From assembly GCA_963740085.1 (NCBI GenBank), contig CAVUCU010000001.1:1088001-1152000 (forward strand): a stretch of DNA of 64,000 nucleotides, given 5' to 3'. The notes beneath the pieces are model-generated. The model searched no databases and had not been told where the DNA came from. It was given only the letters and a program-made list of their open reading frames with translations. Every line of letters begins with the position of its first letter. The stretch's first letter is position 1. This document shows positions 20,504 to 64,000 of this stretch, one piece after another. The DNA is from Nitrospirota bacterium (lineage in GTDB: Bacteria > Nitrospirota > UBA9217). Both the position numbers and the translations under genes were made by a program.

Positions 20504-20732
20504 TTAATCAGTTCGCTTTTCGTAAGATCGACGGTCTAATGAGACCGCTTCTCGATACCCGAACTTGTCGCGATGACCCTTCTCTGCAGAAAAAGTGCTT
20601 TAAGTATAGCAAAAGCACGCCGGAATTGTAACCGAAGTCTCGATCATACGGTCTTTATAACCGTATCGTCGTCGAAGAAGGTTACTTTTTTCGACTCGCG
20701 GTGGATAAAATATGACTCAGAAGTCACTAGAT

Positions 20733-20764
20733 AAAAAAGGCGGCCATCTGTCCGCCTTTTTTTT
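20733..20764. terminator. Bidirectional-type terminator hairpin downstream of the DUF255 gene
   Basis: aaaaaaggcgg-ccatctgt-ccgcctttttttt. Confidence 0.7.
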
Positions 20765-20790
20765 GTGCCGACCGCACGGCAGCTTCTTTT

Positions 20791-22662: not shown

Positions 22663-22919
22663 ACTCCTCTTGAAAGAGGAACATACAGGGACGGGGGTAT
22701 TGGTCGTTTTTCAATGATACCTCATTGCCTGCGGGAAATGAAGCGTCATCTATGCATCTCTATTATTGATCGAAGCGTGATAATACCAAATCTTCTTTCC
22801 GGTCAGATTGATTGAAAATTACTCTTTGAAAGAATGTTTTTATGATATAGTTGGTTTACAAATGGTTCTTCCTGAAGTGCGGAGCATGAACGATTCTAAA
22901 ACTACGAGGAGTATATTCA

Positions 22920-28900: not shown

Positions 28901-31574
28901 TCAGGAACAGATCATGGGACTCATTGCGGCAGGCGTTGAAGCGAACGTGGCCGAACGGCCGGGAGGCATTTTCGTAAGACCTGTGGACCAGATACCGAAC
29001 GAGGACCGGATCCTGCTTCAAACAGTCGCCCGCGTCGTCATCAGTGACAGCCTCGGCCCGCTTGCTGATCAGGTAAAGCGTCGCGCTCGTGCAACGGCAC
29101 CGGCCCCGCTCCTTACCTTGACCCGAAACCATCTCTCCGAACCCTTAACAATCGCCGCGTTGCCTCGCCTTGATCTGACGTTCTTCAACGGGTTGGGCGG
29201 ATTCACCACCGATGGGCGGGAGTACGTCATTACAACCACGCCCGAACAGGTGACGCCGGCGCCCTGGGTTAATGTGCTTGCAAACCCGCTTTTCGGGACG
29301 GTCATTTCAGAGAGCGGAGCTGCTTACACCTGGAGCGAGAATGCCCATGAGTTCCGCCTCTCTCCCTGGGAGAATGATCCTGTTTGCGATTCGAGCGGAG
29401 AGGCGTTTTACATCCGTGATGAAGAGCGTGGCCACTTCTGGTCTCCCGCGCCGCTGCCAAGCCGCGGGGCGACGCCTTACGTCACTCGTCATGGCTTCGG
29501 CTACAGCGTCTTCGAGCATACGGAACTCGGTATCCGCTCAGAAATGTGGGTTTATGTGGCCGAAGATACAGCGATCAAGTTCATTGTGCTGAAAGTGAGA
29601 AATGAGTCCGGCAGACCGCGCAAGCTCTCGGCCACCGGTTACGTGGAATGGGTGCTGGGAGATCTGCGTTCAAAAACGGCAATGCAGGTGATCACCGAAA
29701 TCGACCCCAAAACCGGCGCCGTCTTCGCGCGGAACCCGTATAACACGGAGTTCGCTGAACGTACGGCCTTCTTCGACTCAGGCGAGGCGAACCGGACCGT
29801 GACCGGCGACCGGACCGAGTTCCTTGGCCGCAACGGCACGCTTCAGAAGCCGGCTGCGATGACCCGTACCCGGCTTTCCGGCAGGATAGGGGCCGGTCTG
29901 GATCCATGCGCCGCTGTCCAGGTCCCCTTCGATCTGGCCAACGGGCAGGAGCGGGAGATCATCTTCATGCTCGGTGCTGGGAGAAACTCCGAAGACGCGG
30001 TCAACCTGGTGCAACGCTTCCGGGGGTCCGCTGCCGCGCGCGGCGCGCTCGAAAAGGTCTGGGAGTATTGGAACCACACCCTCGGCGCTGTGCAGGTGAA
30101 GACGCCGGACCAGGCCGTCAACATGCTGGCCAACGGCTGGCTACTCTACCAGACCCTGGCTTGTCGTCTCTGGGCGCGAAGCGGATACTACCAGTCCGGA
30201 GGCGCATTCGGTTTCCGAGACCAGTTGCAGGACGCGATGGCGCTCATCCATACCCGGCCGCAGCTCCTGCGCGGGCACCTCCTCCTCTGCGCGGCCCATC
30301 AGTTCAAGGAGGGAGATGTCCAGCATTGGTGGCATCCCCCGACAGGGCGCGGCGTGCGTACACGCTGTTCCGACGATTTTCTCTGGCTTCCCCTTGCCAC
30401 ATGCCGCTATGTTCTGACGAGCGGCGACACCGGGGTGCTTGATGAAACCGTCCGCTTCATCGAGGGTCGACCGCTCAACCCTGACGAAGACTCCTATTAC
30501 GATCTCCCCCGTGCTTCTGAGGAAACGGCCACCCTGTATGATCACTGTGTGCAGGCCATCCTGCGCGGCATCACCAGCGGCGCGCATGGCCTGCCGCTCA
30601 TGGGTTCAGGTGACTGGAACGACGGCATGAACCTGGTGGGCAGTCACGGCAAGGGTGAAAGCGTCTGGCTCGGATTTTTCCTGTATGAGGTGCTGGTGCG
30701 GTTTTCGGAGATCGCGCGCTTTCACGACGATCCTTCATTCGCGGAACGCTGCCAGGCGGAATCCGCGCTTGTGAGCAAGAATATCGAGCAGCATGGCTGG
30801 GATGGTGAATGGTACCTCCGGGCTTTTTTTGACGACGGTTCGCCGCTGGGTTCAGCGGGCAATGCTGAATGCCGGATCGATTCCATTGCCCAAAGCTGGT
30901 CTGTTCTTTCCGGTGCCGGTGATGTTAAGCGATCCCGCACGGCAATGGAAGCGGTTGACAAGTTTCTTGTTCGACGGCAGCATGGCCTGATCCAGCTCCT
31001 GGACCCGCCGTTCGACAAGTCGGATCTGGATCCCGGATATATAAAGGGGTACGTTCCCGGTGTGAGGGAGAACGGCGGGCAGTATACCCACGCGGCAGTC
31101 TGGACTGCGATGGCCTTTGCCGCACTGGGCGACAGCAGCCGCGCATGGGACCTGATGGCAATGATCAATCCCATAAACCATGGGAGATCGCCTGAAGAGA
31201 TCGCGATCTACAAAGGAGAACCCTATGTTGCGGCCGCCGACGTCTATGCGGTCCCTCCGCACATCGGGCAAGGCGGATGGACCTGGTACACGGGGTCGGC
31301 CGGGTGGATATACCGGCTTATCCTGGAATCGCTTCTGGGGCTGCGGCTCGAGACAGACAAACTACGCTTTGAGCCGTGCCTGCCCAGGGAGTGGGATATG
31401 TTTACGGTGCACTACCGGTACCGGGAAACCATCTACCATATCGCGGTCCGGCAAACGCTTGACAGCGGCGGAGGGAGTGTGATGGTCGATGGCGTCCCGC
31501 AGATCGAAAAGACTATTCCCCTTGTTGACGACCGTCTAGAACATGAGGTCGAGGTGAAAATTCCAGCGAGGTGA
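22920..31574 (+). CDS. ndvB: Cyclic beta-1,2-glucan synthase (Cgs/NdvB; GT84 plus GH94-like domains), 2884 aa
   Basis: [81 protein letters not shown]. Confidence 0.93.
24787..24823 (+). repeat. REP-like palindrome inserted in frame within the glucan synthase gene
   Basis: ccccctcaccctcgtcctctccctccgggggaaaggg encodes the low-complexity [13 protein letters not shown] stretch. Confidence 0.55.
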
Positions 31575-31734
31575 GTGAAGGTATCAGTGTCACTCCGAAT
31601 ATTAGCGTCGTGTGTAAGTTTCGATCCGTATTTGTTAATCCTTGGTATTATCTATGAATGCGCACTTGTAGTAAACAATCTCACTTTCTCCATGAATGCA
31701 CGATTTCAACACACCCGTCACAACAATTTTCCGC

Positions 31735-31763
31735 TTGTACATCGCAGGTGATTCTTGTATATT
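31735..31763 (+). promoter_or_regulatory. sigma70-type promoter for hisC-B-H-A-F
   Basis: TTGTAC-17 nt-TATATT, 9 nt before ATG 31773. Confidence 0.55.
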
Positions 31764-31772
31764 CCCCCTATC

Positions 31773-32864
31773 ATGAGTATAAAATCACCAAAAAGAAAAG
31801 ACATCTCAACGCTTATCCGACCCCAGGTGCGCAAGCTTGCTGCTTACCATGTCGACGAAACGCCTGTCCGCATCAAGCTGGACGCCATGGAAAACCCCTT
31901 CCCCCTGCCCGAAGCGATACGTCGCGAGATCGCCGCAGTCGTCAGGAATACGAAGATCAACCTCTATCCTGACCCGTCGGCCAAAAAGCTCAAGAAGGCC
32001 ATCGCTTCGATGTGGCGGATGAAGCCTGAGCAGATGATCCTCGGCAATGGTTCGGACGAACTGATCCAGGCGATCATCCTCGCCTTCGGCGGACCCGTGC
32101 TGGTCCCGGTGCCGACCTTTGCCATGTACGAGATCACCTCCCGTGCGCTTGCGCAGAACGTTGTCGCCGTGCCGCTCAATGATGACTTTGATCTCGACGC
32201 TGACGTGATGCTCAAGAAAGCGAAGGAAGGCAAGGCGAAGGTGATCTTCCTCGCCTGTCCGAACAACCCGACAGGGAACCGGTTCTCGGACATAGAGGTC
32301 AGGAAGGTCCTTGACCATGCCAATGCCGTGGTCGTGATCGACGAAGCCTATTTTAGTTTTTCAAATAAGACCTGGCTTCCGCTTCTGAAGAAGTATCCCA
32401 ACATGATCCTGCTCAGGACGCTTTCGAAGATCGGTTTTGCCGGTCTCCGAATCGGTGCGCTGACTGCCTCGCAGAACGTCATCGATGAACTGAATAAGAT
32501 CAGGCTTCCGTACAATATCAACAGCCTGTCCCAGGCGGTCGGGGTGACCGCGCTCAAGCATAAAGAGGTCATCAGACGACAGATTTCCCTGTTGATTTCA
32601 GAGCGGGAAAGATTATATAATGCCCTGTCAAGGCTTCCGGGCGTCACTGCCTATCCATCAGAGACCAATTTCATCATGATCAGGGCGGCCACGGATGCCT
32701 CGGGCATTCACAAAAAGCTCAAGCAGGCCGGCATCCTCATCAAGAATTTGAGCAAACCAGGCCCACTCAGGAACTGCCTGCGGGTGACCGTAGGGACGCC
32801 GGAAGAGAACAGGGAATTCCTGAAGAAGCTTAATGCTATTTTAGCCGCGGATAGACACGGATAA
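31773..32864 (+). CDS. hisC: Histidinol-phosphate aminotransferase
   Basis: KLDAMENP, GNGSDE, PNNPTG, DEAY, RTLSK.GFAGLRIG, LRVTVGT. Confidence 0.95.
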   Translation: MSIKSPKRKDISTLIRPQVRKLAAYHVDETPVRIKLDAMENPFPLPEAIRREIAAVVRNTKINLYPDPSAKKLKKAIASMWRMKPEQMILGNGSDELIQAIILAFGGPVLVPVPTFAMYEITSRALAQNVVAVPLNDDFDLDADVMLKKAKEGKAKVIFLACPNNPTGNRFSDIEVRKVLDHANAVVVIDEAYFSFSNKTWLPLLKKYPNMILLRTLSKIGFAGLRIGALTASQNVIDELNKIRLPYNINSLSQAVGVTALKHKEVIRRQISLLISERERLYNALSRLPGVTAYPSETNFIMIRAATDASGIHKKLKQAGILIKNLSKPGPLRNCLRVTVGTPEENREFLKKLNAILAADRHG

Positions 32865-32998
32865 AAGCGGAAGGTCCACCCGCGAATGAATGTTGATTTT
32901 CACGAACAAGGACTTGAGACTATGTCTAGAAAAGACTTTTCAGCCACCTTGTTCAGACTTTGATAATTGATCCGTGTTCATCCGTGCAGATCCGTGGC
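32844..32998. repeat. Inverted element with 10-nt-period arms; the left arm contains the hisC stop codon
   Basis: cgcggataga cacggataaa agcgga ... atccgtgttc atccgtgcag atccgtggc. Confidence 0.75.
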
Positions 32999-33017
32999 AA
33001 AGAATTAGGATTAAATC

Positions 33018-33608
33018 ATGTCAAGAAAAGCGACCATCGAACGCAAGACCAAAGAGACGGACATCAGGATGTCCCTCAACCTCGACGGCACAGGCGTGTA
33101 CAGCATCAAGACCTCGGTGCCGTTCATGGACCACATGTTCTCGCACATTGCCAGGCACGGTTTCTTCGACCTTTCGATCAAGGCAAGGGGCGATATTGAG
33201 ATCGACGACCACCACACGGTGGAGGACCTCGGCATCGCCTTCGGCCAGGCCCTCAAAAAGGCGCTCGGGGACAGCAAAGGCATTCGCCGGTATGGCGAGG
33301 CGACCGTACCCATGGACGAGACGCTCGCGCAGGTGTGTATGGACCTTTCCGGCAGGCCCTACCTCGTGTATCAGCTGGACCTGCCGAAGAAGTACAAGCT
33401 CAAGAACTTCGATCCGGGACTTGCCGAGGACTTCTTCCGCTCTGTTGCCAATCACGCAGGCATGAACCTCCATATCCGCATTTTATACGGCCGCGATGTC
33501 CATCACATGCTCGAAGGAGTCTTTAAGGCCTTCGGCCGCGCCCTGGACCAGGCCACGAGCCTCGATCCGAGGATCAAGGGCGTGCTCTCGACAAAAGGGA
33601 AAATTTAA
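33018..33608 (+). CDS. hisB: Imidazoleglycerol-phosphate dehydratase
   Basis: [29 protein letters not shown]. Confidence 0.97.
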
Positions 33609-33623
33609 CAGCCAGTTCTTTCA

Positions 33624-33708
33624 GGAGAAATGGGGAATAGGAATGGAGAACTGGAGAGAAGATATATCCGTCGCTTCTCCCTTTCGCCCCTCCCTCCCCC
33701 TTTCCCCT
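33624..33708. repeat. Inverted element with ~8-nt-period arms
   Basis: ggagaaat ggggaata ... ggagaact ggaga opposite ttctccct ttcgcccc tccctccc cctttcccct. Confidence 0.55.
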
Positions 33709-33727
33709 GTGAAGGTTTAAATCTATC

Positions 33728-34366
33728 ATGATAGCAATTATTGATTATGGAATGGGAAATCTCAGGAGCGTCCAGAAGGGCTTTGAACACACGGGCCATG
33801 AGGCCGTGGTCACGAGCGACGCGAAGACGATCCTGAACGCGGACAAGGTCGTGCTGCCCGGCGTGGGCGCGTTCCCTGATTGCATGCGGAACCTGGAGCA
33901 GTACGGCCTTATCGATGCGGTGAAGAAGAGCATCGGCACGGGCAAGCCCTTTCTCGGGATCTGTCTGGGCCTCCAGCTTCTCTTCACGGAAAGCGAAGAG
34001 TTCGGAATATCCAATGGTCTGGACATCATCAAAGGCCGTGTCGTTCGTTTCAAAGGACCTGTATTCGAAACTCCGAACTCCGATCTCGGCACGTTGAAGG
34101 TCCCTCACATGGGCTGGAATTCGCTTTCCTTCAAAAGGAGCCCGCCTGCGTTCGCAGACGTGCCGGAGAACAGCCATGTCTACTTTGTGCATTCGTTCCA
34201 TGTCGTACCGGAGGACAAGGGCGTCATCGCGACCACCACGCCGTATGGCATCGAGTTCGTCTCGAGCATCTGGAAGGACAATATTCTCGCGGTCCAGTTC
34301 CACCCCGAAAAAAGCCAGCAGGTGGGGTTGTCGATCCTGAAACGCTTCGGGGAACAGAAAGGCTAA
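33728..34366 (+). CDS. hisH: Imidazole glycerol phosphate synthase, glutaminase subunit
   Basis: DYGMGNL, LPGVG, GICLGLQ, PHMGWN, YFVHS, QFHPEKS. Confidence 0.97.
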   Translation: MIAIIDYGMGNLRSVQKGFEHTGHEAVVTSDAKTILNADKVVLPGVGAFPDCMRNLEQYGLIDAVKKSIGTGKPFLGICLGLQLLFTESEEFGISNGLDIIKGRVVRFKGPVFETPNSDLGTLKVPHMGWNSLSFKRSPPAFADVPENSHVYFVHSFHVVPEDKGVIATTTPYGIEFVSSIWKDNILAVQFHPEKSQQVGLSILKRFGEQKG

Positions 34367-34610
34367 TTTCACCGCAGAGGTCGCAGAGAACGCGGAGAAA
34401 CCTAATAATTTTATAATTAATCAGAACCTAAAACCATATGCTCACACGAAGGCACAAAGTACACGAAGGAAAACTATGCATCTTGCTTTTGGTTCAAACC
34501 CGGGAATTAAAGCCTTTCTTCGTGCCTTTGTGGCTTCGTGTGACAATGACTTGAGTAGTTACATTATTCTGTATGTTTTTTTCTCAGCGTCTCAGCGCCT
34601 CCGCGGTAAA
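34367..34610. repeat. Two nested 9-nt-period inverted elements
   Basis: Outer arms accgcagaggtcgcagagaacgcggaga / tctcagcgtctcagcgcctccgcggt. Inner arms (34442..34543) tcacacgaaggcacaaagtacacgaagg / cttcgtgcctttgtggcttcgtgtga. Confidence 0.8.
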
Positions 34611-34627
34611 TTTTTTTTGAGGTATTT

Positions 34628-35350
34628 ATGCTTATAATTCCGGCCATCGATCTTAAAGAAGGCAAGTGCGTCCGCCTTGAACAGGGGCTCATGGACAAGG
34701 CCACGGTCTATTCCGACGATCCCGCGACCACGGCAAGGCACTGGGAGTCTCAAGGAGCGGAGTTCCTCCATGTCGTTGACCTGGACGGCGCTTTTGCCGG
34801 CGTGCCGAAAAACCTCGATGCCATCAAGGCGATCCGTGCTGCCATCAAGATCCCGATCGAGGTCGGCGGCGGCATCAGGGACATGGCCACGATCAGGGCC
34901 CTCGTCTCGATCGGCATAGACCGTATCATCCTCGGCACTGCTGCGATCGAAAATCCGGCCTTTGTGCAGGAAGCCTGCAAAGAGTTTCCCGGCAGGATCA
35001 TCGTGGGCATTGATGCAAAAGAAGGCCTCGTGGCGATCAAGGGATGGGCGGAGGTCACGAAGGTGAAGGCAACCGACCTCGCGCAACAAATGCAGGAGCA
35101 TGGCGTCATCGCCGTCATCTACACCGACATCAAGCGCGACGGCATGCTGTCGGGCCCGAATATCGAGGCCACGCAGGCGCTCGCGCGGGCGCTGCATATC
35201 CCGGTCATTGCCTCGGGCGGCGTCCATACGATGAAGGATATTGAGAACCTTCTTACGATACGGTACGCCGGCGTCAGCGGCGTCATCACCGGGAAAGCTA
35301 TCTATAGCGGCTCTCTCAATTTAAAAGAAGCCATCACGTTTATCAAATGA
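34628..35350 (+). CDS. hisA: ProFAR isomerase
   Basis: [42 protein letters not shown]. Confidence 0.97.
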
Positions 35351-35381
35351 ACGATAACCAGTGCTCAAGGTAAAATCAGGT

Positions 35382-35499
35382 TTCTCGCAGGGACGCAGAG
35401 CCCGAAGAGAACTACAGTACCAAGATCTAAAAGAATTTTCTGGCATAAGAACTTCAGGGGATTTTAAAGCTCTCTGCGACCTCTGCGCCTCCGCGAGAG
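35382..35499. repeat. Inverted element with 9-nt-period arms
   Basis: tctcgcagggacgcagagcccgaagaga ... tctctgcgacctctgcgcctccgcgaga. Confidence 0.75.
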
Positions 35500-35542
35500 A
35501 ATGCCTCTTGATTTTTAATTTTGGAGATTTTATTTATTCGTT

Positions 35543-36403
35543 ATGCTGACTAAAAGGATCATACCCTGCCTGGACGTGAAGGCGGGACGGGTTGTCAAAG
35601 GCGTCAGCTTCGTGAACCTGCGCGACGCCGGGGACCCGGTCGAGATCGCAAAGGTGTACGACGAGCAGGGAGCTGACGAACTGACGTTCCTGGACATCAC
35701 CGCGTCGCACGAGGAGCGCGGCATCATCCTCGACATCGTGCGACGCACGGCGGAGCAGGTCTTCATGCCGCTTACCGTGGGCGGAGGCATCAGGGTCATC
35801 GACGACATCCGCAACCTCCTGCTCGCCGGGTGCGACAAGGTCTCGATCAACACCACCGCGGTCCACGACCCGGAGTTCATCAAGGCCGCTTCCATGCGCT
35901 TCGGCAGCCAGTGCATCGTGGTCGCCATCGACGCGAAACAGGTTGTTGCCCATGACAAGGACTTCAAGCCGCCGCTCACCTGGGCCGACGACCCAAAATA
36001 TAAATCGCTGTTCCTGTCTCGACTCCGCGCTCCTCACCCCTGAGCTCACGAACCCCGCTGGGAGGTCTACACCCATGGCGGCAGAAATCCCATGGGTATC
36101 GACGCGGTTGCATGGGCAAAGAAAATGGAAGAGTACGGCGCGGGGGAGATCCTGCTCACGAGCATGGACCAGGATGGACGGAAGAACGGTTATGATCTGG
36201 CGCTCACGCGCTCTGTTGCCGAAGCGGTCTCGATACCGGTCATTGCCTCCGGCGGCGTGGGGAATCTCGAACACATCTATGACGGTTTTACAAAAGGCAA
36301 AGCCGATGCCGCTCTCGCGGCATCGATCTTTCATTTCAGAGAATATACCATCAGGCAGGCGAAGGAATATTTGAAGGAGCGGGGTGTACCGGTGAGGTTG
36401 TAA
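35543..36403 (+). CDS. hisF: Imidazole glycerol phosphate synthase cyclase subunit, with an in-frame TGA at 36041..36043 inside an inserted loop
   Basis: [22 protein letters not shown], then ...[18 protein letters not shown]..., [20 protein letters not shown]. ORFs 35543 and 36092 are in the same frame. Confidence 0.9.
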
Positions 36404-36432
36404 CATCGCTGCCAAAAATGATCGCCCGTAAT

Positions 36433-36470
36433 AAAAAAGCGGCCGGGGATTGAGTACCCTGACCGCTTTT
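36433..36470. terminator. Bidirectional terminator between convergent genes
   Basis: aaaaaagcgg.cggg ... ccctgaccgctttt. Confidence 0.65.
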
Positions 36471-36489
36471 GCTTTTCCCAACGCGTTTC

Positions 36490-36744
36490 CTACTTCCCCT
36501 TCACTTCGATCTCCGCGGCACGTGATTCATACTTCACGGTGACCTTCGCGCCGACCTTCAGGTCGCCCTTGACCTTGGTGCTGGAGTCCTTGGCCATTTC
36601 GAATTTCTCGCCGTTCTTGTCCACCACGATGACGTTGTCCTTGACCTCCAGGACCTTGCCGGTGAACTGATACGTCTTTCCTGCAAAGGCTGCCGTTGCC
36701 ATAACCATCACTGCCACTACGACAAATATCATGATGCGCTTCAT
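36490..36744 (-). CDS. Small exported OB-fold-like protein
   Basis: Signal peptide ending TAAFA; beta-rich GKVLEV...TKVKGDLKVGAKVTVKY. Confidence 0.7.
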   Translation of the reverse strand: MKRIMIFVVVAVMVMATAAFAGKTYQFTGKVLEVKDNVIVVDKNGEKFEMAKDSSTKVKGDLKVGAKVTVKYESRAAEIEVKGK

Positions 36745-36785
36745 AAGAAACCCCCTTTAAGATGAGATGATAAACGAAACTCCCC

Positions 36786-36869
36786 GGATCCTTCGCTATG
36801 CTCAGAGTCTACCCTGAATATCCCGAATGAGATATGATGAATCAGGTCCTTCGCTTCGCTCAGGATGAC
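36786..36869. repeat. Two REP-like repeats of the same family as 11298..11414
   Basis: ggatccttcgctatgctcagagt and ggtccttcgcttcgctcaggatgac. Confidence 0.65.
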
Positions 36870-36879
36870 GGCTTTGCCG

Positions 36880-37533
36880 TCACTTTTTCGCCGCGATCCC
36901 CTTCTGGATCGCCTTCACCACGCCGTCGCTGCTTGTCTCGCTGATCTTGAGGAGTATGCCTTTCTTCAAGTAATAGCCAATGAGCGGTGCGGTCTTCTCA
37001 TTATACACGTCAAGCCGTTTGCTGATCGCCTCCACGGTCTCGTCGGCACGCTGTATCGTGGGACTGCCGCACTTTTTGCACTTATCGCCGGGGGCCGGGG
37101 GATTGCTCTTGATGTTGTAGATCTCCTGGCAGGACGGATTGGAACAGGTCCTGCGCGTGGTCAATCGGTCGAGGATCACGTCGCGCGGGACCTCGATGCT
37201 CGCCACGAGGTCAAGCTTGATGTTGAGCTTCGTCAGGATCGCATCGAGCGCGTCGGCCTGCGGGATGGTCCGCGGGAAGCCGTCGAGGAGAAAACCTTTC
37301 TGGCAGTCCTTCTCTTTAAGCCGCTGCTCCATGATGCCCATGATCAATGAATCAGGAACCAGGTCGCCCCGGTCCATGTAGCCCTGCGCTTCTTTGCCGA
37401 GCGCCGTGCCGGCCTTTACCGCGCCGCGCAGAATATCGCCTGTCGAGATCTGGACCGAGCCGTCCAGTGCTGTCAACAGCTTTGCCACCGTGCCCTTGCC
37501 CGCGCCCGGTGCGCCTAAAAGAATGATCCTCAT
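36880..37533 (-). CDS. adk: Adenylate kinase with a four-Cys zinc lid
   Basis: GAPGAGKGT, ISTGDILR, LDGFPRT, CSNPSC..CKKC. Confidence 0.96.
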   Translation of the reverse strand: MRIILLGAPGAGKGTVAKLLTALDGSVQISTGDILRGAVKAGTALGKEAQGYMDRGDLVPDSLIMGIMEQRLKEKDCQKGFLLDGFPRTIPQADALDAILTKLNIKLDLVASIEVPRDVILDRLTTRRTCSNPSCQEIYNIKSNPPAPGDKCKKCGSPTIQRADETVEAISKRLDVYNEKTAPLIGYYLKKGILLKISETSSDGVVKAIQKGIAAKK

Positions 37534-37644
37534 TGTTGCTTACCTCCCTGGAGTAAAGTGAATTAGTGCTTCAAGGCGGCCATTATCGTATTATCCGGTA
37601 AAAAAATCAAGAAAAATGGTAACTGCTCAGATCAAAACCGTTTG

Positions 37645-37735
37645 GCCGCAAAGAACGCAAGGAACTCAAAGAAAAAACATGCACCTTGAATTATCAGTAT
37701 TAAATTCTCTCTGCGTTCCTTGCGTTCTTTGCGGT
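37645..37735. repeat. Inverted element with 9-nt-period arms
   Basis: cgcaaagaa cgcaaggaa ctcaaagaa ... tctctgcg ttccttgcg ttctttgcg. Confidence 0.75.
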
Positions 37736-37754
37736 AAAAAGCAGTCAATCGGAA

Positions 37755-39260
37755 TCACACCATCACCACTTCGTACTGCTCCTGATGCAGATTGGGGTCG
37801 GCCTTGATCACGATCTTCTTCTGAAATTCCTTTTCCAGCTCCTCCACGCCCTGCCGCTCCTCATCGTACATCATATCGGCAACCACGGAGTTCACGGTCA
37901 CGAGGGCCTTCCTTTCCTCGGCTCCGGTAAAGGCCCTGCGGAGCTCGCGGAAGACCTCATAGCAGATGGTGCGGCTCGACTTGACGTATCCGCGTCCTTC
38001 GCAGTAGGGGCACGTGTCGCACAGTGTTCGTCCCAGGCTCTCGCGAATGCGCTTGCGCGTCATCTCGATCAGCCCGATGGGCGAGATGTGCGAGATGGTG
38101 GTCTTGGCCTTGTCGTTCGCGAGCGCCTCCTGCAGCGCCGCGTACACCTTTCGCCGGTTGTCCTCGCGTTCCATATCGATGAAATCGAGGATGAGGATGC
38201 CGCCGATGTTCCGGAGACGCAGCTGGTAGGCGATCTCGCGCACCGCCTCGAGGTTGGTCTTGAGGATCGTGTCTTCGAGCGAACGCTTGCCCACGTACCT
38301 GCCGGTGTTCACGTCGATCGTGGTGAGCGCCTCGGTCTGGTCGAGGATGATGTACCCGCCTGACTTGAGCCAGACCTTCCTGCCGAGGGCCCGCGAGATC
38401 TCGATCTCCACGCCGTAGTGTTCGAAGATGGGGTCGTCGCCTTCGTAGGGCTTCACGCGCCTGCCGAGCTGGGGGATGTAGGAGTCCACGAACTCTTTCA
38501 CCCGGTCGTATTCCTCGGGGGCATCGATGACCAGCCTGTCGACGTCACGGGTGAAAACGTCGCGGATCACCCGGAAGACGAGGTCGAGCTCGTTGTGCAT
38601 CAGCGCCGGGGCCGAGGTCTTCTCTTTTTTCCGCTGGATGGTCTCCCACAGCCGCGAGAGGAACTCGACGTCGGCATTGAAATCGTCCTCGCTCCTGCCC
38701 TGGCTGGCGGTCCGGATGATGTAGCCGGTGTTCGGCTTCCGGAGCCTGCTCACGATCTCCCGGAGCCGGCGCCGCTCCTCGCCGTCCTCGATCCGGCGCG
38801 AGACGCCGATGTGGTTGACGCCCGGCATCATGACCAGGTAGCGGCCGGGGATGCTGATGTAGGTCGTCACGCGCGCGCCCTTGGTGCTGATCGGCTCCTT
38901 GGATACCTGGACCAGGATGTCCTGGCCTTCCTGCAGGAGGTCCTCGATCTGCGTTGCGTGAGAGCGCTTCCGCTTCGGCTCAACCTCGAGTTCCAGGCCC
39001 TCGTCCTCCATCATGGGTGTGTATTCCGACGTGCTGTCGAACACGTCGCCTACATACAGAAAGGCGGCCTTCTCCAGTCCTATGTCCACGAACGACGCCT
39101 GCATGCCGGGAAGGACCTTCATCACGCGCCCTTTGTACACATTGCCTGCCATTCCGCGTTCCTTCTTGCGGTCGATGAATATTTCCGTGACCAGGCCGTT
39201 CTCCAGAAGCGCCACGCGCGTCTCTTCCCGGCCCGCATTTACGATGATCTCAGATGACAT
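37755..39260 (-). CDS. rng: Ribonuclease G (Rne/Rng family)
   Basis: GNVYKGRV..VLPGMQASFVDIG, KGARVT, IDVNTG, GGILILDFIDM, CPYCEG; 501 aa. Confidence 0.92.
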   Translation of the reverse strand: MSSEIIVNAGREETRVALLENGLVTEIFIDRKKERGMAGNVYKGRVMKVLPGMQASFVDIGLEKAAFLYVGDVFDSTSEYTPMMEDEGLELEVEPKRKRSHATQIEDLLQEGQDILVQVSKEPISTKGARVTTYISIPGRYLVMMPGVNHIGVSRRIEDGEERRRLREIVSRLRKPNTGYIIRTASQGRSEDDFNADVEFLSRLWETIQRKKEKTSAPALMHNELDLVFRVIRDVFTRDVDRLVIDAPEEYDRVKEFVDSYIPQLGRRVKPYEGDDPIFEHYGVEIEISRALGRKVWLKSGGYIILDQTEALTTIDVNTGRYVGKRSLEDTILKTNLEAVREIAYQLRLRNIGGILILDFIDMEREDNRRKVYAALQEALANDKAKTTISHISPIGLIEMTRKRIRESLGRTLCDTCPYCEGRGYVKSSRTICYEVFRELRRAFTGAEERKALVTVNSVVADMMYDEERQGVEELEKEFQKKIVIKADPNLHQEQYEVVMV

Positions 39261-39427
39261 TGTTTCTCCTTGATTGATGGTTTCTTAAACCTATTTTATT
39301 ATACTCTGGAGTTGAACACAAGAAGGAAAATCGAGTGCAGAGAAACAACCTTTGCCGCGGATCAATGCGGAAATGAAAAGGCTCCTTTAGTTACCAAGGG
39401 AGCAATTCTTCTCAAGACAAATAATTT

Positions 39428-39532
39428 TCTCGCAGAGGCGCAGAGTTCGCAGAGAAAAGCTCAAATATTCCGGCTAAAATCAATACGTAAATCGTATGAT
39501 TTAACTCTGCGTCCTCTGCGTGCTCTGCGAGA
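39428..39532. repeat. Inverted element with 9-nt-period arms
   Basis: tctcgcagaggcgcagagttcgcagaga ... ctctgcgtcctctgcgtgctctgcgaga. Confidence 0.75.
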
Positions 39533-39582
39533 GACGCCTTTTTGGTTCCGGCTTATCCGGGTTAAGATGACCTAACCGGTCC

Positions 39583-42072
39583 CTAAAACGCCATCGGACT
39601 TATCCACTGGTCCTTTTCCCTGCAGTACATTCCCACGCGCTTTATTCTGAACATCACGGATTGATCTTTCCCGATGTTGAACAGTTGTTCGATCATGTCC
39701 TGTATGCGCGGCTTGAGCTGGTCGTGATCGACCAGCGTACAGACAATGCCATCACGAGCCACGGCAATTGATTCGATGCACGGACGGATGTCCTTCTGCT
39801 TCCCCTCTTTTGCAACGACCACCGATGTCCGCGACAGGAAATCCTTGACCCGCTCTTCGATACCGTCCCGATACGGCGCTGCGATGGTAACGTCATACAC
39901 GTACCTGCCGATGCTGCCGGAAAGGGAAGGGGCTTTCTTCGAAACAACCTTTGATTCAAGTATCCTTACGCCGTCAGGAAGCACATTGTTCAGTCCCTTG
40001 GTGACCTGAAGCAGGTCCGCGAACGGGTCGACCTCCAGGTCAAGATATTCAGTCTCGCTCTCCATGCCCACCGGAAGCGACGGGCCAAAGGCGATCTTCG
40101 GATGAGGGTTGAAACCCCGGGAAAAGGCGATGGGCACCTTTGCACGGACCGCAGCACGATGGAACAGGGTCATGAAATCCAGATGGGAAAGAAAACGGAT
40201 GCGTCCCGACTTGGTGAATTTCATCCTGATGCGGGCGGACATATCAGGCAGTCCCGCGGGTTGAGGCCGGTCTGCCCGCGCGGGTTGCTCCGTTTGTGTT
40301 TGTATCGGTGCCGACGCAGCCGGTTTCCCGAGCGAGGGCGTTCCGCCGTCCGTGCACCCGAGACCGCAATGCTCACACGCCACCCGGCAGTTCTCCGTGG
40401 TCTTCTCCTCCACCGCGCGTTGATACTCGCGCTTCATGAATTCCCGGGTCACACCGCTCCTGACGGCGTCCCAGGGAAGTTCATCCTCCAGCCCGAACGT
40501 CCGTGCTGCATAGGATGAGGCGTCGAGTCCGCATTTCTGAAAGGCTCCGGTCCATTTCTTAAAGTCAAAGTATTCGGTCCAGCCGTCAAAGCGGCACCCG
40601 AGGCGTACAGCCTCTTCGATGACCCTGCCGAGCTGCCGGTCGCCGCGCGCGAATGCCCCTTCCAGCAGGCTCGTCTCGGGGTTGTGGGCCTTCAGGGTGA
40701 TACCGCGCCTCTTCAACCCCTTCTCGAGATAGGCCTGCCTTCTCCGGATCTCCTCGATGGGCGCCTGGCCATGCCACTGGAACGGCGTATGCGGCTTGGG
40801 AACGAAGGTCGAGACGCTGACATTGATCTGCGCCGGCCGCTTGGAGGCGCGTTTGCCGAGGCTCGCGAGTTCGTTGGTGAGCCTGATAATACCGTCAAGG
40901 TCAAGGTCGGTCTCGGTCGGGAGGCCGATCATGAAGTAGAGTTTGATCGTGTTCCATCCGCTCCGGAAGATGGTCTCCGCGGCGTCCATGAGGTCCAGAT
41001 CGGTCACCGGTTTGTTGATGACCCTGCGCAGGCGCTCGGTGCCCGCCTCCGGCGCGAGCGTGAATCCGGTCTTGCGCGTCCCGGCAATGGCCCTGATCAT
41101 CTCCGGCGTGAGCGTGCCCACGCGAAGCGACGGGAGCGAGACCGAAATGCGGCTGTCCCGGTACTTCTCCATCAGCTCGATGATGAGAGGCTGGATCTCC
41201 GAGTAATCGCCTGAGCTCAGCGAGGCGAGAGAAAGTTCGTCATATCCGGTGCAGGCGAGCGATCCGTCGAGCAGCCCTTTCACCGTTTCCGGGCCCCGCT
41301 CCCGGTAAGGCCGGTAGATGATCCCGGCCTGGCAGAACCTGCAGCCGCGGATGCAGCCGCGCGCGACCTCGACGGTCACGCGGTCATGGATCGGTCTCAT
41401 AAGCGGTACGAGAGGTCTGTCAGGATAGGGTGCTGTTTCTATGCTTGCGAGATACCGCCTGCGGACGGTCGTCTTTCCCAGCGAGGGTACGTAAAAACCG
41501 TCTCGTTTCGAGATGGCGCTGAGAAATTCCCGCCTGCCCCGATGTTCCTGCCGGAGCGCCACGATCTCGTGCACGGCCTCCTCGGCCTCGCCGATGAAAA
41601 AGACGTCGATAAAGTCGGAAAGCGGCTCCGGATTCACGGAACAGGGGCCGCCGGCGATGACGAGCGGGTGGCTGTCGGTGCGGTCCTCGGATCGTATCGG
41701 GATCTGTGCAAGCTCCAGCCCGGTCAGGATGTTGGAGTACGAGAGTTCGTACTGGAGGGTGATGCCGATGATGTCGAATTCAGCAAGAGGCAGATTTGAC
41801 TCCAGGCTCGTCAGCGGCCTTCCCGATATGCGGAGCCTGTCCTCATAGTCCGGCCAGGGAGAAAAGACCCGTTCGCATGCCGTGTCCGGCCTGCTGTTCA
41901 GGATGTGGTAGAGGATCCGGATGCCGAGGTGCGACATGCCGACCTCGTAGGTGTCGGGAAAGAAGAGACAGACCGTGGTCTTGACCTGCGCCAGGTCTTT
42001 GTGGATTGCATTGATCTCGGTGTTAATGTACCGCGCGGGCTTGGCGACCAGCGGGAGAAAGTCTTCGAGCAT
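39583..42072 (-). CDS. B12-binding-type radical SAM protein fused to a DUF2344-like domain
   Basis: FPDTYEVGMSHLG, RGCIRGCRFCQAG (CxxxCxxC), APEAGTERLR, C-terminal RFLSHLD..FSRGFNPHPK. Confidence 0.88.
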   Translation of the reverse strand: MLEDFLPLVAKPARYINTEINAIHKDLAQVKTTVCLFFPDTYEVGMSHLGIRILYHILNSRPDTACERVFSPWPDYEDRLRISGRPLTSLESNLPLAEFDIIGITLQYELSYSNILTGLELAQIPIRSEDRTDSHPLVIAGGPCSVNPEPLSDFIDVFFIGEAEEAVHEIVALRQEHRGRREFLSAISKRDGFYVPSLGKTTVRRRYLASIETAPYPDRPLVPLMRPIHDRVTVEVARGCIRGCRFCQAGIIYRPYRERGPETVKGLLDGSLACTGYDELSLASLSSGDYSEIQPLIIELMEKYRDSRISVSLPSLRVGTLTPEMIRAIAGTRKTGFTLAPEAGTERLRRVINKPVTDLDLMDAAETIFRSGWNTIKLYFMIGLPTETDLDLDGIIRLTNELASLGKRASKRPAQINVSVSTFVPKPHTPFQWHGQAPIEEIRRRQAYLEKGLKRRGITLKAHNPETSLLEGAFARGDRQLGRVIEEAVRLGCRFDGWTEYFDFKKWTGAFQKCGLDASSYAARTFGLEDELPWDAVRSGVTREFMKREYQRAVEEKTTENCRVACEHCGLGCTDGGTPSLGKPAASAPIQTQTEQPARADRPQPAGLPDMSARIRMKFTKSGRIRFLSHLDFMTLFHRAAVRAKVPIAFSRGFNPHPKIAFGPSLPVGMESETEYLDLEVDPFADLLQVTKGLNNVLPDGVRILESKVVSKKAPSLSGSIGRYVYDVTIAAPYRDGIEERVKDFLSRTSVVVAKEGKQKDIRPCIESIAVARDGIVCTLVDHDQLKPRIQDMIEQLFNIGKDQSVMFRIKRVGMYCREKDQWISPMAF

Positions 42073-59267: not shown

Positions 59268-59849
59268 TCAATAGTGGAAAGCCTGGAGATCCGCCTTCAT
59301 GCGCTCAACGGCGGCCCGGAGCGACGTTGCGGAAGGCAGGGACGGCTTCTCCCCGAGGGTTGACCTGACGAGTTCGTCAGCCGCGGCGGACAGCACCGCC
59401 TGCTGTTCCTTGAGACGGACGATTTTTTCACGGATTCCTCTCCGCATGCCGTCCAGCTCCTCGGCCAGCAATTGGAACTCTTCCTCTTTACTGAGACTGA
59501 CCTCGCTCGCCAGATCGCCGCCGCCAATTCTCATAATGTCCTTTTTGATGGAATAGAGCGGCGGGGAAAGCCTCTTCCAGAGAGAATTGATGGTAGTGGC
59601 CAGGATGGCGGCGAATACCAGCAATGAGATCACGTGAACGCCGACCGTGACCGGCAGCAGCAGTTCGCTCGTCGTTTTAATATCGATGTAGGATGAATAG
59701 CGTATTGCATCCAACCTTTTTCCCGCCAGGTAGGAAAACAGCATGATCGTGGCCGCCGCCCATATGGCTGCAACGGCGACAAATCTCAGGATAAAACGCG
59801 ATTGAAAATCTTTATCGATAAAATATTTTTTTCTGTTAATGGCCGGCAT
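59268..59849 (-). CDS. Two-TM HAMP-domain protein with no output domain
   Basis: RKKYFIDKDFQ N-terminus, 2 TM segments, PL..I...I..GDL...EF..LA HAMP pattern. Confidence 0.75.
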   Translation of the reverse strand: MPAINRKKYFIDKDFQSRFILRFVAVAAIWAAATIMLFSYLAGKRLDAIRYSSYIDIKTTSELLLPVTVGVHVISLLVFAAILATTINSLWKRLSPPLYSIKKDIMRIGGGDLASEVSLSKEEEFQLLAEELDGMRRGIREKIVRLKEQQAVLSAAADELVRSTLGEKPSLPSATSLRAAVERMKADLQAFHY

Positions 59850-59864
59850 GATTGGCTCCCGTAT

Positions 59865-60437
59865 TTATGTTCTCATCTCCGAAAGACTGCGCTCGATTTT
59901 TTTAACGTTATTCGACAGGTCTCCCGTTATCTGTTTGAGCGCAACCCCGTCCTTGTCCTGTTGGATGAGGTCGGACACTTTTTTCGACTGACTGTCAATG
60001 GCGGCAAGTGCGTCCCTGACCGCATGAATGCGGCCCCGGTATTGCGAGGCCATCTCATTCAGCAGGTCCGCCATGTCCGTAAGGTTGTCCTTCCGGCGAA
60101 ATTTGATATTGCCGGTCAGATCGCCCTGGGCGATCCTGGCTGCCTCCAGGCCGATACGGTAAGCCGGGCCGACTATGCGGTGGGAATAGACCAGATGAAG
60201 CGCCACCATCGCCAGAACGATGAGAACAGAGGTAACGGCATAGAGCATCGCAACTCTCCAGAACAGTACGTTCCCGATCTCGCGCACCTGGGCCTGTACG
60301 TTATGATAGCCTTCGCCAAGATCCGCAGGGAACGACCAGAACACGCCCCATCCGGTGATCACGGCGCCGAGCACTACGATCGCCAGCGAGTTAATAAAGA
60401 GAAACAACCGGTAATTTCTTCGGGTGGTGAGTCCCAT
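59865..60437 (-). CDS. Two-TM HAMP-domain protein with no output domain
   Basis: 2 TM segments, SHRIVGP, IAQGDL...FRRKD.L..MA..LN. Confidence 0.75.
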   Translation of the reverse strand: MGLTTRRNYRLFLFINSLAIVVLGAVITGWGVFWSFPADLGEGYHNVQAQVREIGNVLFWRVAMLYAVTSVLIVLAMVALHLVYSHRIVGPAYRIGLEAARIAQGDLTGNIKFRRKDNLTDMADLLNEMASQYRGRIHAVRDALAAIDSQSKKVSDLIQQDKDGVALKQITGDLSNNVKKIERSLSEMRT

Positions 60438-60678
60438 GGCACGCCTCCTGGTTCAGGATCACTTTCGTTCTTATACGGAATACTTTAACAAAAGTCTTCC
60501 AATAGTGCAAGGATCATTAACGTGAAATGAAAATGCGGCTTGCTTTGGTCCGGGTAACTTGATATCATTGGGATACGATCATGATGCTTTACCATGCATC
60601 AGCTGTGTTCAACATAACCGGACAGGAAGATGAATAGAATGAGCATGACATCGTTCGCTCGCAATTTTTAAGGAGCAC

Positions 60679-61822
60679 ATGGAGCATGGTTTTAGGTCAT
60701 ACGGTGTTTTTTTCATGGAGTCTTCCTTGTTCTTTGTCAGGTCCGCGCGGCAGAAGCCTTTCATTCCGGAGGGGCTGCGAGAGTGCAAGGAATGTCATGA
60801 AGACAACGAAGGGCTCTTTACGCGGATCCGATGCAAGCTCCACCTGTCTTCGTTGCCATCAGGCGCCGCAGGGTACGCGGGAGCCCATTGGCCATTATAT
60901 TGCAACCAATAGCGTCGATCTTGGGGCCGGTATGCCGCCCTCACAATTAACTCCTGGTGGAGACTTCGGCTATTTAAAGAAGAGCTACTTCTGGAAAACC
61001 GCGGGAACGACAGGGCGCAGCCCTGGTGAACGGCACGGCCATAACATTGTTGCGGACGACTATGGGTATATCGCAGACAGTAAGATGTTGAGCAAACCGG
61101 GAGAAGTCTATCCCAATGGCCGGCTTTCCTGTATCAGCTGCCATGATCCGCACGGAAAAATTTCGAACGGTGTATATCGCATGCTGGGGGGAATTGGCTA
61201 TAAAACAAGTTTAGTGCCGGGCATGGTTTTCAATGCCGATGCACCTGTCGCTGTTGCTCCACACGACTACAACAGGTCTGAGGCCGTTACGGACACGAGG
61301 GTCGCGTATGGCAAGGGGATGTCCGAATGGTGCTCAAATTGCCATACGAACGGATGTTCAGGCGCGTATGGACATCCTGTCTGCAACGGTGCCCGGTGCA
61401 CGACTGAGATCATCTCCAATTACGGCGCCTATGTGAAATCAGGTGATATCAATGGAAGAAGGGACGCTTCATATACTTCACTCGTTCCATTCGAAGAAGG
61501 GACCGACGACAGGTCGATGCTCGCACAGCATGCCCGATTCGACGGCAGCTATGCATCGGGTCCCGGGTATGGTTCCAATGTTATGTGCCTCACCTGTCAC
61601 AGGGCTCATGCATCATCCTGGGACCATATGACCCGATGGAACATGACTGCGACCTTTATCGTTTATAAAGGCGTTTACCCGGGAACCGATAATAGTTCAT
61701 CTGAGGAGTATGCTCAGGGTCGCACGGCTGCCGAGACGCAAAGAGCCTTCTATGACAGACCGCATACGCAGTTTGCTAGCTACCAGAGGGGTCTTTGCAA
61801 CAAGTGTCATATAAGAGACTGA
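60679..61822 (+). CDS. omcS: OmcS-family hexaheme cytochrome c; the 5' ~140 nt is split over three frames (frameshifted gene or pseudogene)
   Basis: AAGGAG RBS; AEA|FHSGG; CKECH, CLRCH, CISCH, CSNCH, CLTCH, CNKCH; blocks TPGGDFG, GHNIVA, TRVAYG.GMSEWC, CHRAHAS and YQR.LCNKCH match OmcS as recalled. Confidence 0.85.
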
Positions 61823-61889
61823 GGTGCCCTCAACTCATCGCATTCGTCGGATATCTTCTTCGAGACCCCTCATTCCCGCTCATCGCGTC

Positions 61890-62165
61890 TTATCGGGTTG
61901 TGCCGCTCCCTATCTCGACCGGTTGTGTGTGGCAGCGCTGACAATCCAGCAAGGGAAATGCGACCTTGTCATGGCAAACGCCGCAGTATTGACCGTTGAC
62001 AATCTGAAACAGGGTATACTTCGTTGCGCCCTTCTTCACGTTGGGAAATATCTCCGGGTGGCAGACCTCGCAGCCGTTCCGGACAGCGTGTTTCTTATGC
62101 GAAAAAAGCACCCTGTCCATCCAGGGTGCTTTTAAATCTATCAGAAAGTCCTTTTGCGGTTTCAA
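61890..62165 (-). CDS. Triheme c7-like cytochrome domain, apparently N-terminally truncated
   Basis: FSHKKH, CEVCH, CGVCH..VAFP, CQRCH; no signal peptide, and an in-frame TAA lies shortly upstream. Confidence 0.7.
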   Translation of the reverse strand: MKPQKDFLIDLKAPWMDRVLFSHKKHAVRNGCEVCHPEIFPNVKKGATKYTLFQIVNGQYCGVCHDKVAFPLLDCQRCHTQPVEIGSGTTR

Positions 62166-62301
62166 GTGTGGCCGCAGAGTGTTGTTCAGCAGCCTGTCAG
62201 ATGAACGATGATATCCGGAGCGGTGGTTTTTTTACCTCTCTGTGCCGGGGGATGCGCCTCGCACCACGACCACGAGCCGGCATGCTTTGTTGAAAAGGGC
62301 G

Positions 62302-63207
62302 CTATTCAGCGATCTCATATATCTGGACGCGGTTATTGCCCCTGTCCGCGACAAAAAACTCTCCCTCATCATTGATACAGGCTTGCGACGGATAGCGGAG
62401 CAGGCCTTCCTTCCATCCCATGGCCATCTGCCGCCCCTGGAATGTTCCATCCTGGCCGATAATGACGATGTCCCCGCCGGTCTGGTCAACAAGGTAAATG
62501 GTCCCCTTCTTGTCCGTGGTGATGCTGGTCGGGAAGTACACGGTATCTTTCATGCTTTGCGTCAAAGGGGTAAATTTTTTGGCATCCTTGGGAGCGGAAT
62601 AGACAACGGATTCAACGCTGTCGATCAGCAGGACCGTTTCCCTGGGATCAACCGCAAGGTCGGAAATGAACCCGTAATTGTCCGGGAAGGCGATGTTTCT
62701 CAGGAATTTTCCTTCGGCATCAAGCACCACGACATTCGCCGAAAAAATATCCAGAACATACAGGTTGCCGTTCGCGGCTACCTTGAAGCTCCGAGGCACG
62801 ATCGGCGAGGAGCCGGGCATCCCGGACGGTTCAACGTATCCCTTGAACTCTCCCTCGGGACTCAGGCGCACGATACGCCGCTGTTTTTCATCAAGTGCCA
62901 GGATGTTCCCGCTGCCGTCGATCTGCAGTCTCACCGGATAGGTTAATTGCGGCACTTTCAAGTCCGGTCCGGCCACCAATGTCTTGTTCTGGAAGGAGTA
63001 TCGCACGAGCCTGCCGTTGCCCGTATCGGCCACCACAAATTGCGAGTCCTTGCCGCAGGCAACGCCCTCGGGCTTCTTGAATCCCTTTTGCTGCGAATCC
63101 TGATACACGCTCACGATATGCTGCAGCTTCACCACGGCGAATCCCGTCGAGCTCAGGATAAAAAGCGCGGTCAGCGTTGTCAGGGCGGTCCGAATGATCA
63201 TTCTCAT
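62302..63207 (-). CDS. Exported NHL-repeat beta-propeller protein
   Basis: Signal peptide; repeated P..VA....F.VAD.GN.R units. Confidence 0.85.
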   Translation of the reverse strand: MRMIIRTALTTLTALFILSSTGFAVVKLQHIVSVYQDSQQKGFKKPEGVACGKDSQFVVADTGNGRLVRYSFQNKTLVAGPDLKVPQLTYPVRLQIDGSGNILALDEKQRRIVRLSPEGEFKGYVEPSGMPGSSPIVPRSFKVAANGNLYVLDIFSANVVVLDAEGKFLRNIAFPDNYGFISDLAVDPRETVLLIDSVESVVYSAPKDAKKFTPLTQSMKDTVYFPTSITTDKKGTIYLVDQTGGDIVIIGQDGTFQGRQMAMGWKEGLLRYPSQACINDEGEFFVADRGNNRVQIYEIAE

Positions 63208-63214
63208 GATTGCA

Positions 63215-64000
63215 TTACCTCTTCAGCTGTTCGTGGCACTGGACGCAGAGATCCATGCCGAATTGAAAGTGGGCCAGGCGTTTCTGGTCAGATCCGTGCG
63301 ATTTATGGCAGCTCAGGCAGTCGAGCGTCAGGTTCTTGTTCCTCGGGTCTATTGCCTTTTCTCCTATCGGGTGCGACGAATGATGCGTGAAGTCGTGACA
63401 GGTGCTGCAGAGCGCAATGACGTCCTTGTCATTCAGCAGGAGGACATTATCGGAGGCATGAGGAGAATGGCAGGTCGTGCACATCCCTTGCTCCACGGGA
63501 ACGTGCTTGGAAAGGGCCTTCTCCTGTCTCGTGATCGTGTCCTTGTGACAACCACCGCAGACGTCCTTCATCGAGTCCCCCTATCAGGAGGGACGCCTGC
63601 TTCGAAGCGTGAGGGTTATGACAGTTCAGACAGCCCCGACGGTCCAGCAGGGGCCAGTGGATCCGGTTCTTCGACAAGGCCGAATTGACCATGTCGTAGT
63701 GGCATCCGCGGCAGAGCTCAAAGCCGGTCTTCTTGGTCTTGAACGGCGTTGTTGAGGTGGGCTCTTCGTGACACTGGTTGCACAACTTATTTGCGACCGG
63801 GGGGTGCACGGTATCATAGAGCAGGGAGCTCCGCGATGACCCGTGCGGATTATGGCACGTCGTGCAACGGGCATTGCCGACAGGATAATTCGCATGGGCT
63901 TTGAGGAAGAACGGCTTGTCGGTCTGATGGCAGTCCTTGCAGAGGCCGGGGACGTCCTTCTTGAGGAGATGAAGGGCCGCGGTCGACGCGTGGGGATCGT
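63215..64000 (-). CDS. Large multiheme cytochrome c (at least 10 CxxCH, paired CxxCHxPH type); frameshift at G5 run 63577..63581; 5' end outside the window
   Basis: Manual translation gives CKDCH, CTTCH, CNQCH, CRGCH, CLNCH, then after the shift CGGCH, CTTCH, CSTCH, CLSCH, CVQCH. Confidence 0.85.

Follow-up and report, generated by a model that had tools for sequence, protein, structure and literature searches.

Towards the end of the analysed window, a stretch of 64,000 nt, lies a cytochrome gene that is spread over three reading frames (Table 1). Coordinates are those of the window unless C1, the contig of the source assembly (G000), is given. An ORF of 378 aa at 60686..61822 on the plus strand contains five CxxCH motifs. 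Three-frame translation of 60560..60960 gave MEHGFRSYGVFFM from the ATG at 60679, ..VFLVLCQVRAAEAFHSGGAA in the second frame, ECKECHEDNEG in the first frame again and KGSLRGSDASSTCLRCH.. in the frame of the 378-aa ORF. The haem-1 motif CKECH is thus in the same frame as the ATG, and '...VLCQVRAAEA FHSGGAA', at 60750..60779, is in the third of the frames. The signal peptide was recognised from the sequence and by comparison with homologues and a PDB chain. Intact homologues read M(E/K)HGFRSY..FFLALC..R(T/A)(G/A)EA FHSGG(A)AEC(K/Q)ECHED.KGSLRGSDASSTCLRCH in this region. The five motifs of the ORF, CKECH at its position and a signal peptide ending in AEA|FHSGG in the other frames had all been named in the original prediction, and each was found by the translation. 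Six CxxCH motifs are obtained only when all three frames are joined; in this the prediction of a hexahaem protein from the joined frames held, but its two breaks had to be replaced by three, because the ATG and the first 13 codons are framed differently from the rest of the signal peptide.

Table 1. Features at the cytochrome locus, in window coordinates.
Feature	Position	Strand	Remarks
Membrane protein 2 of the conserved pair	59268..59849	-	193 aa, no Pfam match
Membrane protein 1 of the conserved pair	59865..60437	-	190 aa, weak HAMP match; divergent from the cytochrome gene
Shine-Dalgarno-like AAGGAG	60670..60675	+	ahead of ATG 60679
Start codon and first 13 signal-peptide codons (MEHGFRSYGVFFM)	60679..60717	+	frame of ORF 60679..60912; agrees with the N-termini of intact homologues P0004 and P0006
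Break 1	60718..60719	+	1 base absent versus 4/4 intact orthologues (CATGG-AGTC); X1 contig has T inserted behind 60718
Signal-peptide remainder and cleavage site AEA|FHSGGA	60720..60777	+	second frame, codons in phase with 60750
Break 2	60778..60780	+	1 surplus base, GCGAGAGTGC versus orthologue G-GAGAGTGC; X1 contig omits one base at 60778
Haem-1 motif CKECH	60784..60798	+	ATG frame again
Break 3	60805..60808 (~60806/60807)	+	1 surplus base, GACAACGAAG versus GACGC-GAAG or GATAA-TAAG; uncovered by the 4 runs compared
Gene body	60808..61822	+	frame of the 378-aa ORF: haem motifs 2-6, conserved distal histidines (GERHGHN, DPH, YGHP, RAH), stop codon; no more breaks
c7-type trihaem cytochrome ORF	61890..62165	-	91 aa; convergent with the OmcS-like gene
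NHL-repeat beta-propeller protein with signal peptide	62302..63207	-	counterpart adjoins 16-haem and 26-haem cytochromes in relatives' OmcS loci
16-haem cytochrome gene, 3' part	63215..64000, on to window coordinate 64532 (C1:1151215-1152532)	-	two frames, split near 63570

The positions of the breaks were taken from a DNA alignment of the window with four intact same-genus orthologues (L002, L003, L004 and L010). These orthologues, which come from G004, G006 (two copies) and G003, run in one open frame over residues 1-380. The three single-base differences and a shortened spacer are found in the window only, against all four of them; the spacer between ribosome-binding site and ATG is one base shorter than in the four orthologues and in a contig of the short-read run X1. 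The remaining 1015 nt of the gene hold neither a nonsense codon nor an additional indel.

A public protein record, P0001, is 100% identical to the 378-aa ORF, which means that haem 1 and the signal peptide were missed by automatic annotation, as had been foreseen. That this ORF has been called might speak for a five-haem cytochrome without haem 1, starting at ATG 60686 with an N-terminus of its own, as the true product. We consider this very improbable. Residues 1-40 of the ORF do not match any homologue, similarity to OmcS and its close relatives beginning at residue 41 to 45, and a short way upstream the other frames contain the signal peptide, FHSGG and CKECH, ordered and spaced as in the intact orthologues. 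Besides, maturation of a c-type cytochrome is impossible without export. It is harder still to believe that the breaks are read through by programmed ribosomal frameshifting or by transcriptional slippage, or that they act as a phase-variation switch. Nothing would suggest it except that the breaks are grouped close to the gene start, whereas no homopolymer, slippery heptamer or short repeat occurs at the three sites, the frame could be restored only by three successful shifts of mixed sign, and the gene is in frame in all four orthologues and, at two of the sites, in the X1 contig.

From sequence comparison, the locus is predicted to encode a hexahaem c-type cytochrome of the OmcS family. OmcS is a hexahaem cytochrome that polymerises into conductive filaments. 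With HMMER, residues 41-378 of the ORF aligned with residues 34-407 of the OmcS chain 6ef8_A (E 2.4e-92, 313 bits), and OmcS (6ef8_A, 6nef) provided the sole matches among all PDB chain sequences. The intact homologue P0006 aligned through its residues 28-380 with residues 1-407 of the same chain (E 7.9e-88), and homologues at E <= 0.001 numbered 5422 among 7412 candidates. The window gene is alignable with OmcS of Geobacter sulfurreducens (GSU2504; PDB 6EF8, 6NEF) over its full length and resembles it in the six CxxCH motifs, the conserved distal histidines and the mature N-terminus, since the solved chain 6ef8_A begins with FHSGG. The mature start and the blocks TPGGDFG, GHNIVA.DY, YNR.EA..TRVAYG.GMSEWC.NCH, CHRAHAS and YQR.LCNKCH had been named in the original prediction; all the blocks are present in the alignment to 6ef8_A, so that the proposed kinship with OmcS was borne out by the profile comparison. 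Invariant histidines were sought in 72 parsed sequences out of 120 listed homologues. H2, H92, H94, H131, H205 and H283 (P0006 mature numbering) are histidine in 72/72 aligned family members and are all present in the window gene. Of these invariant non-motif histidines five are common to OmcS and the window gene; the sixth (GERHGHN) is a lysine in OmcS.

The two proteins differ right behind haem motif 1. There, in the comparison of P0006 with 6ef8_A, the subfamily of the window gene has a deletion of 16 residues, by which the OmcS segment 'tmhnslggavmnsata' is lost. This segment presumably carries His16, which serves as a ligand of haem 5 in the following subunit. The window gene reads CKECHEDN.. 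at this point, and the histidine three residues past the first CxxCH (CxxCHxxH, His16 of OmcS) is absent. Two reports on OmcS describe one histidine per subunit, a haem 5 ligand, as a contribution of the neighbouring monomer (PMC7096707, PMC9473688). Of the 72 relatives, 60 are without and 12 are with a histidine in the four residues that follow the first CxxCH, and the six non-motif histidine columns are invariant in the His16-less and the His16-type groups alike. A tree of 27 rows placed the window gene together with its four orthologues (99/97), among 13 His16-less rows that form a weakly supported group (80/79). A separate His16 group of 12 rows (92/90) includes Geobacteraceae genes with an OmcS-like N-terminus. 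Because this subfamily lacks the segment that supplies the inter-subunit haem ligand in OmcS, OmcS-like polymerisation is uncertain for it. According to a recent preprint, wire formation among the Geobacter homologues is known for OmcS itself alone (bioRxiv 10.1101/2025.11.06.686851). The designation as an OmcS-type nanowire that had been proposed for the gene was therefore dropped: such a label is unsafe for just any OmcS homologue, and in the subfamily of the window gene the segment with the inter-subunit histidine is missing.

Another difference from OmcS is the divergent pair of genes for HAMP-like membrane proteins that adjoins the window gene. Both encode two-helix membrane proteins of ~190 aa. 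The pair was surveyed within 2.5 kb of the 88 OmcS-family genes that had sufficient upstream flank, out of 100 such genes in 80 related loci. It was found beside 10 of the 88, all of them at least 56% identical to P0006, and conversely it was present at 10/10 loci of at least 56% identity, across Nitrospirota, Syntrophales, Geobacteraceae and Desulfuromonadales (two phyla, the relatives not being independent of each other). The pair did not occur beside any of 36 His16-type genes, nor at two distant His16-less genes of 38-41% identity.

The genome contains three further OmcS-family paralogues, at C1:1170833-1172047, C1:1172498-1173722 and C1:1175994-1177202, all of them with CxxCHxxH. The second of these, on the minus strand, has one frame split near C1:1172620. 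Riboswitches of the GEMM-I class are located directly upstream of two His16-type paralogues, at C1:1173752-1173829 and C1:1177293-1177372, both on the minus strand (L150:3752-3829 and 7293-7372), with scores of 56.3 bits for c-di-GMP-I and 60.2 bits for c-di-GMP-I-GGC. We take the leader of Geobacter omcS to have a riboswitch of this class as well. Unlike OmcS, the window gene is without an upstream GEMM-I riboswitch, and no Rfam match at E <= 1 was obtained around it (59800..62400). The organism's wire subunits would more likely be the His16-type paralogues under riboswitch control, which lie at a distance of 24 to 29 kb. As regards the window gene itself, we tentatively suggest, as a possibility that we do not rate as the probable one, a distinct and uncharacterised branch of the OmcS family that has lost the N-terminal segment latching the subunits together at haem 5, that is always associated with the HAMP pair and that coexists with His16-type paralogues in the same genomes. 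Its product might then be a non-polymerising terminal or adaptor cytochrome, or a polymer in which another residue provides the sixth ligand of haem 5, with His92 or His257 (P0006 numbering) as candidates. A side observation on the paralogues is that those at C1:1172498-1173722 and C1:1175994-1177202, both on the minus strand, have CANASCH, with CX4CH spacing, in place of the second CxxCH of the family.

Downstream of the window gene the c7-type ORF of 91 aa matches only the C-terminal ~94 residues of six-haem proteins of 358 to 384 aa in relatives (L013, G006). One possible explanation is that the ORF is a remnant; alternatively, it might be a chimeric gene in its unfused form. The N-termini of these longer six-haem proteins match the HAMP-like neighbour. 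The frame split in the 16-haem cytochrome gene is spanned by 42 query ORFs from related loci, and intact versions of 429 to 450 aa are present in L021, G004 and G006. Past the end of the window follow a 26-haem cytochrome, a PPIase-domain protein, a protein of ~750 aa without a Pfam match, the paralogues and several TPR/PMT_2 proteins. The gene order of this island is common to G004, G006 and the Geobacter-titled loci L026 and L029. In the source assembly the ~750-aa protein (C1:1166206-1168377; 751 aa), possibly the barrel of the cluster, is in three frames, and the TPR/PMT_2 protein at C1:1177890-1179823 is in about four. A scan of 60380..62000 for consensus promoters and terminators gave nothing beyond the level of shuffled sequence; a sigma-54-like TGGCAC near 60437 was rejected by eye on account of a misfit in the downstream element.

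The island recalls the osc (omcS-companion) operon of G. sulfurreducens, GSU2505-GSU2493, in the form in which papers citing it describe it (PMC13194489, citing Shen et al. 2025). In those descriptions GSU2495 is a protein of ~70 kDa with 26 haems (bioRxiv 10.1101/2025.11.06.686851). The apparent likeness is one of domain content and lies in the combination of a 26-haem cytochrome, a 16-haem cytochrome, an NHL propeller, a PPIase-domain protein, a ~750-aa protein, TPR proteins and OmcS paralogues. In contrast to the osc operon, the block and the window gene are convergent and not co-oriented, and several of the island genes are frame-split in the source assembly. Osc-like companion genes and the three His16-type paralogues are found 2 to 47 kb from the window gene. 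An OmcS-like electron transfer system in this host, as the prediction had it, is thus represented by the three additional paralogues together with the genes for the large cytochromes and the NHL, PPIase and TPR/PMT_2 proteins. In the organism the window gene is most probably whole, and its product would have a Sec signal peptide cut at AEA|FHSGG and six CxxCH haems with bis-histidine ligation. The cytochrome would be exported to the periplasm or the cell surface, where it could pass electrons along its haem chain as part of an osc-type island for extracellular electron transfer.

The genomes of the same genus contain orthologues at 77% and 72% identity. The best named records, with equal identities, are titled Nitrospirota bacterium (L012, L013) and are followed by records from Syntrophales, Geobacteraceae (65%) and Desulfuromonadales. 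In addition, dsrA is present at 560 bits (cut-off 393), and a dsrB-like gene lies alongside. Taken together, the orthologues, the Nitrospirota records and dsrA place the host among dsrA-bearing Nitrospirota and not in Geobacter, the latter as had been supposed; by its gene content it is classed as a Nitrospirota of the sulfate- or sulfite-reducer type. The novelty that had been attached to an OmcS gene outside Geobacter did not survive comparison with the literature. OmcS genes had already been reported from Thermodesulfovibrionia (PMC8478452), omcS from a bin of the Nitrospirota (PMC11312239) and homologues of OmcS from a variety of bacteria (PMC10954620), and the osc machinery had been described as widespread (PMC13194489). 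The first two of these reports resemble the present case in concerning the same phylum and in being findings at the level of annotation, the window genome having dsrA; they differ in that their genes are hits of an iron-gene pipeline, with subfamilies and gene integrity left unresolved there. OmcS-family genes and their companion clusters have therefore already been described outside Geobacter, Nitrospirota included, and the window gene is of little weight as a discovery. The only mildly new point is its membership in the His16-less branch associated with the HAMP pair, and the literature on the osc system may already cover that branch.

The nature of the three breaks was examined with contigs from public read runs. 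Four of the five public runs that hold parts of the stretch were compared, among them X1, which consists of short reads from a related soil run. An X1 contig of 195 nt (60598..60792, depth 4.3) differs from the window at the first two breaks by precisely the insertion and the omission listed in Table 1, and X1 is thus in frame at breaks 1 and 2. Over its 195 nt this contig shows 8 substitutions and 8 gaps relative to the window, an indel to substitution ratio of ~1:1, whereas over the gene body (60865..61822) an X1 contig of 958 nt shows 8 substitutions and no gaps, the strain being 99.2% identical there. As X1 is a slightly different strain, its evidence extends no further than to the intactness of a close relative. 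Pieces from X2 are near-identical to the window (2, 1, 0 and 0 differences) and begin only at 60890. None of the contigs from the four runs covers 60808..60858, which leaves the region of break 3 uncovered, and a scan of metagenome contigs for exact patterns from both sides of break 3 with a variable gap between them gave 0 matches. Of the three breaks in 60700..60820, where a comparison with reads had been proposed, two are thus absent from the related strain X1.

We infer that the three single-base indels are probably consensus errors of the metagenome assembly. This is supported by the open frames of all four orthologues, by X1 at breaks 1 and 2 and by the rest of the gene, which keeps every conserved ligand. 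Points against it are that break 3 is uncovered by read-derived contigs, that X1 represents another strain and that no break lies in a homopolymer. Homopolymers are the commonest site of long-read errors. The indels might instead be real and the gene a recent pseudogene in a decaying electron-transfer island, with the three His16-type paralogues retaining the function. We hold this to be rather unlikely, although far from negligible. It would agree with the position of the breaks outside homopolymers and with the patchy occurrence of OmcS-family genes in the genus, where the window gene as query found them in five of the eight other congeners. It is opposed by the confinement of the three indels to 90 nt, with no stop codon and all conserved haem ligands kept, by the intactness at two break sites of so close a strain, and by the indel to substitution ratio in the 195-nt patch, which is far above natural spectra.

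The frequency of similar breaks in the rest of the genome bears on the choice between assembly errors and decay. G000 comprises 7 contigs with a total of 3.46 Mb, and for this reason alone it is inferred to be a long-read assembly. As a whole it is not broken up, since it contains 45 ORFs of more than 1000 aa and 503 of more than 500 aa. Genes were compared with those of G003, a genome of the same genus with ~90% nucleotide identity, and only isolated gaps with a length not divisible by three and well-aligned flanks were counted. A first sample gave 24 such gaps in 14 of 120 genes (147 kb aligned) and a second one 17 in 15 of 154 genes (186 kb aligned). Pooled, these are 41 isolated frameshifting gaps in 29/274 genes over 333 kb, some of them near the 5' ends of stop-to-stop ORFs, which may be non-coding. 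Comparison at the protein level yielded 17 split pairs in 10 of 163 ORFs. The genes with gaps encode a sigma-54 activator (4 events), RsmB (2), a histidine kinase (3), AsmA, BrkB, a 1753-aa OmpA-domain protein and the tail of RNase J; the occurrence of similar isolated frameshifts genome-wide, in genes as conserved as that of RsmB, speaks against a pseudogene at the cytochrome locus. In 22 of the 34 single-base events G000 has a surplus base and in 12 a base is missing, and 20 of the 34 have no identical neighbouring base. This excess of surplus bases, together with the lack of identical neighbours, is unlike natural slippage, which is deletion-biased.

The density of splits is not uniform. 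In the island at C1:1148-1195 kb (~47 kb) at least 15 frame splits were counted in at least seven genes, among them those of the 16-haem cytochrome, the 751-aa protein, paralogue 3 and the TPR/PMT_2 proteins. This is about two to three times the sampled rate, and it contrasts with 20 kb of housekeeping genes at 20001..40000 of the window, where no split gene was found relative to G003. The contrast would also fit true decay of the island. At ~10% divergence of G003, genes with several clustered frameshifts might be true pseudogenes of long standing. The scattering of the patches, the bias towards insertions, the non-repeat sites, the conserved nature of the genes affected and the assembly in 7 contigs are the grounds on which the indels are nevertheless read as technical. 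On this preferred reading, the three indels in the first 130 bases of the cytochrome gene would be among the errors that occur in patches all through this metagenome assembly, and the gene would not be hidden by frameshifts in the biological sense of the original prediction. As about one in ten of the genes compared in G000 has patchy single-base indels, its broken genes need read support before they are given a biological reading.

Two further approaches to the frameshifts were set aside. A reverse control, in which ORFs of G000 were placed on loci of G003, returned 12 of 13 events at the same places as the forward comparison and is not independent of it, since stop-to-stop ORFs overrun the breaks. 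Stop codons in tblastn matches were also considered as a pseudogene signal; most of them lay where stop-to-stop ORFs are spurious or extend into non-coding sequence upstream. Around the frameshifting gaps, mismatches had a density of 0.157 up to 40 nt away and of 0.085 at more than 200 nt, a difference that is confounded by the gaps which the aligner places in variable stretches. Finally, short intergenic stretches at 37612..37738 and 39387..39573 of the window matched dozens of places on many G003 contigs with 65-97% identity and represent a dispersed repeat family.
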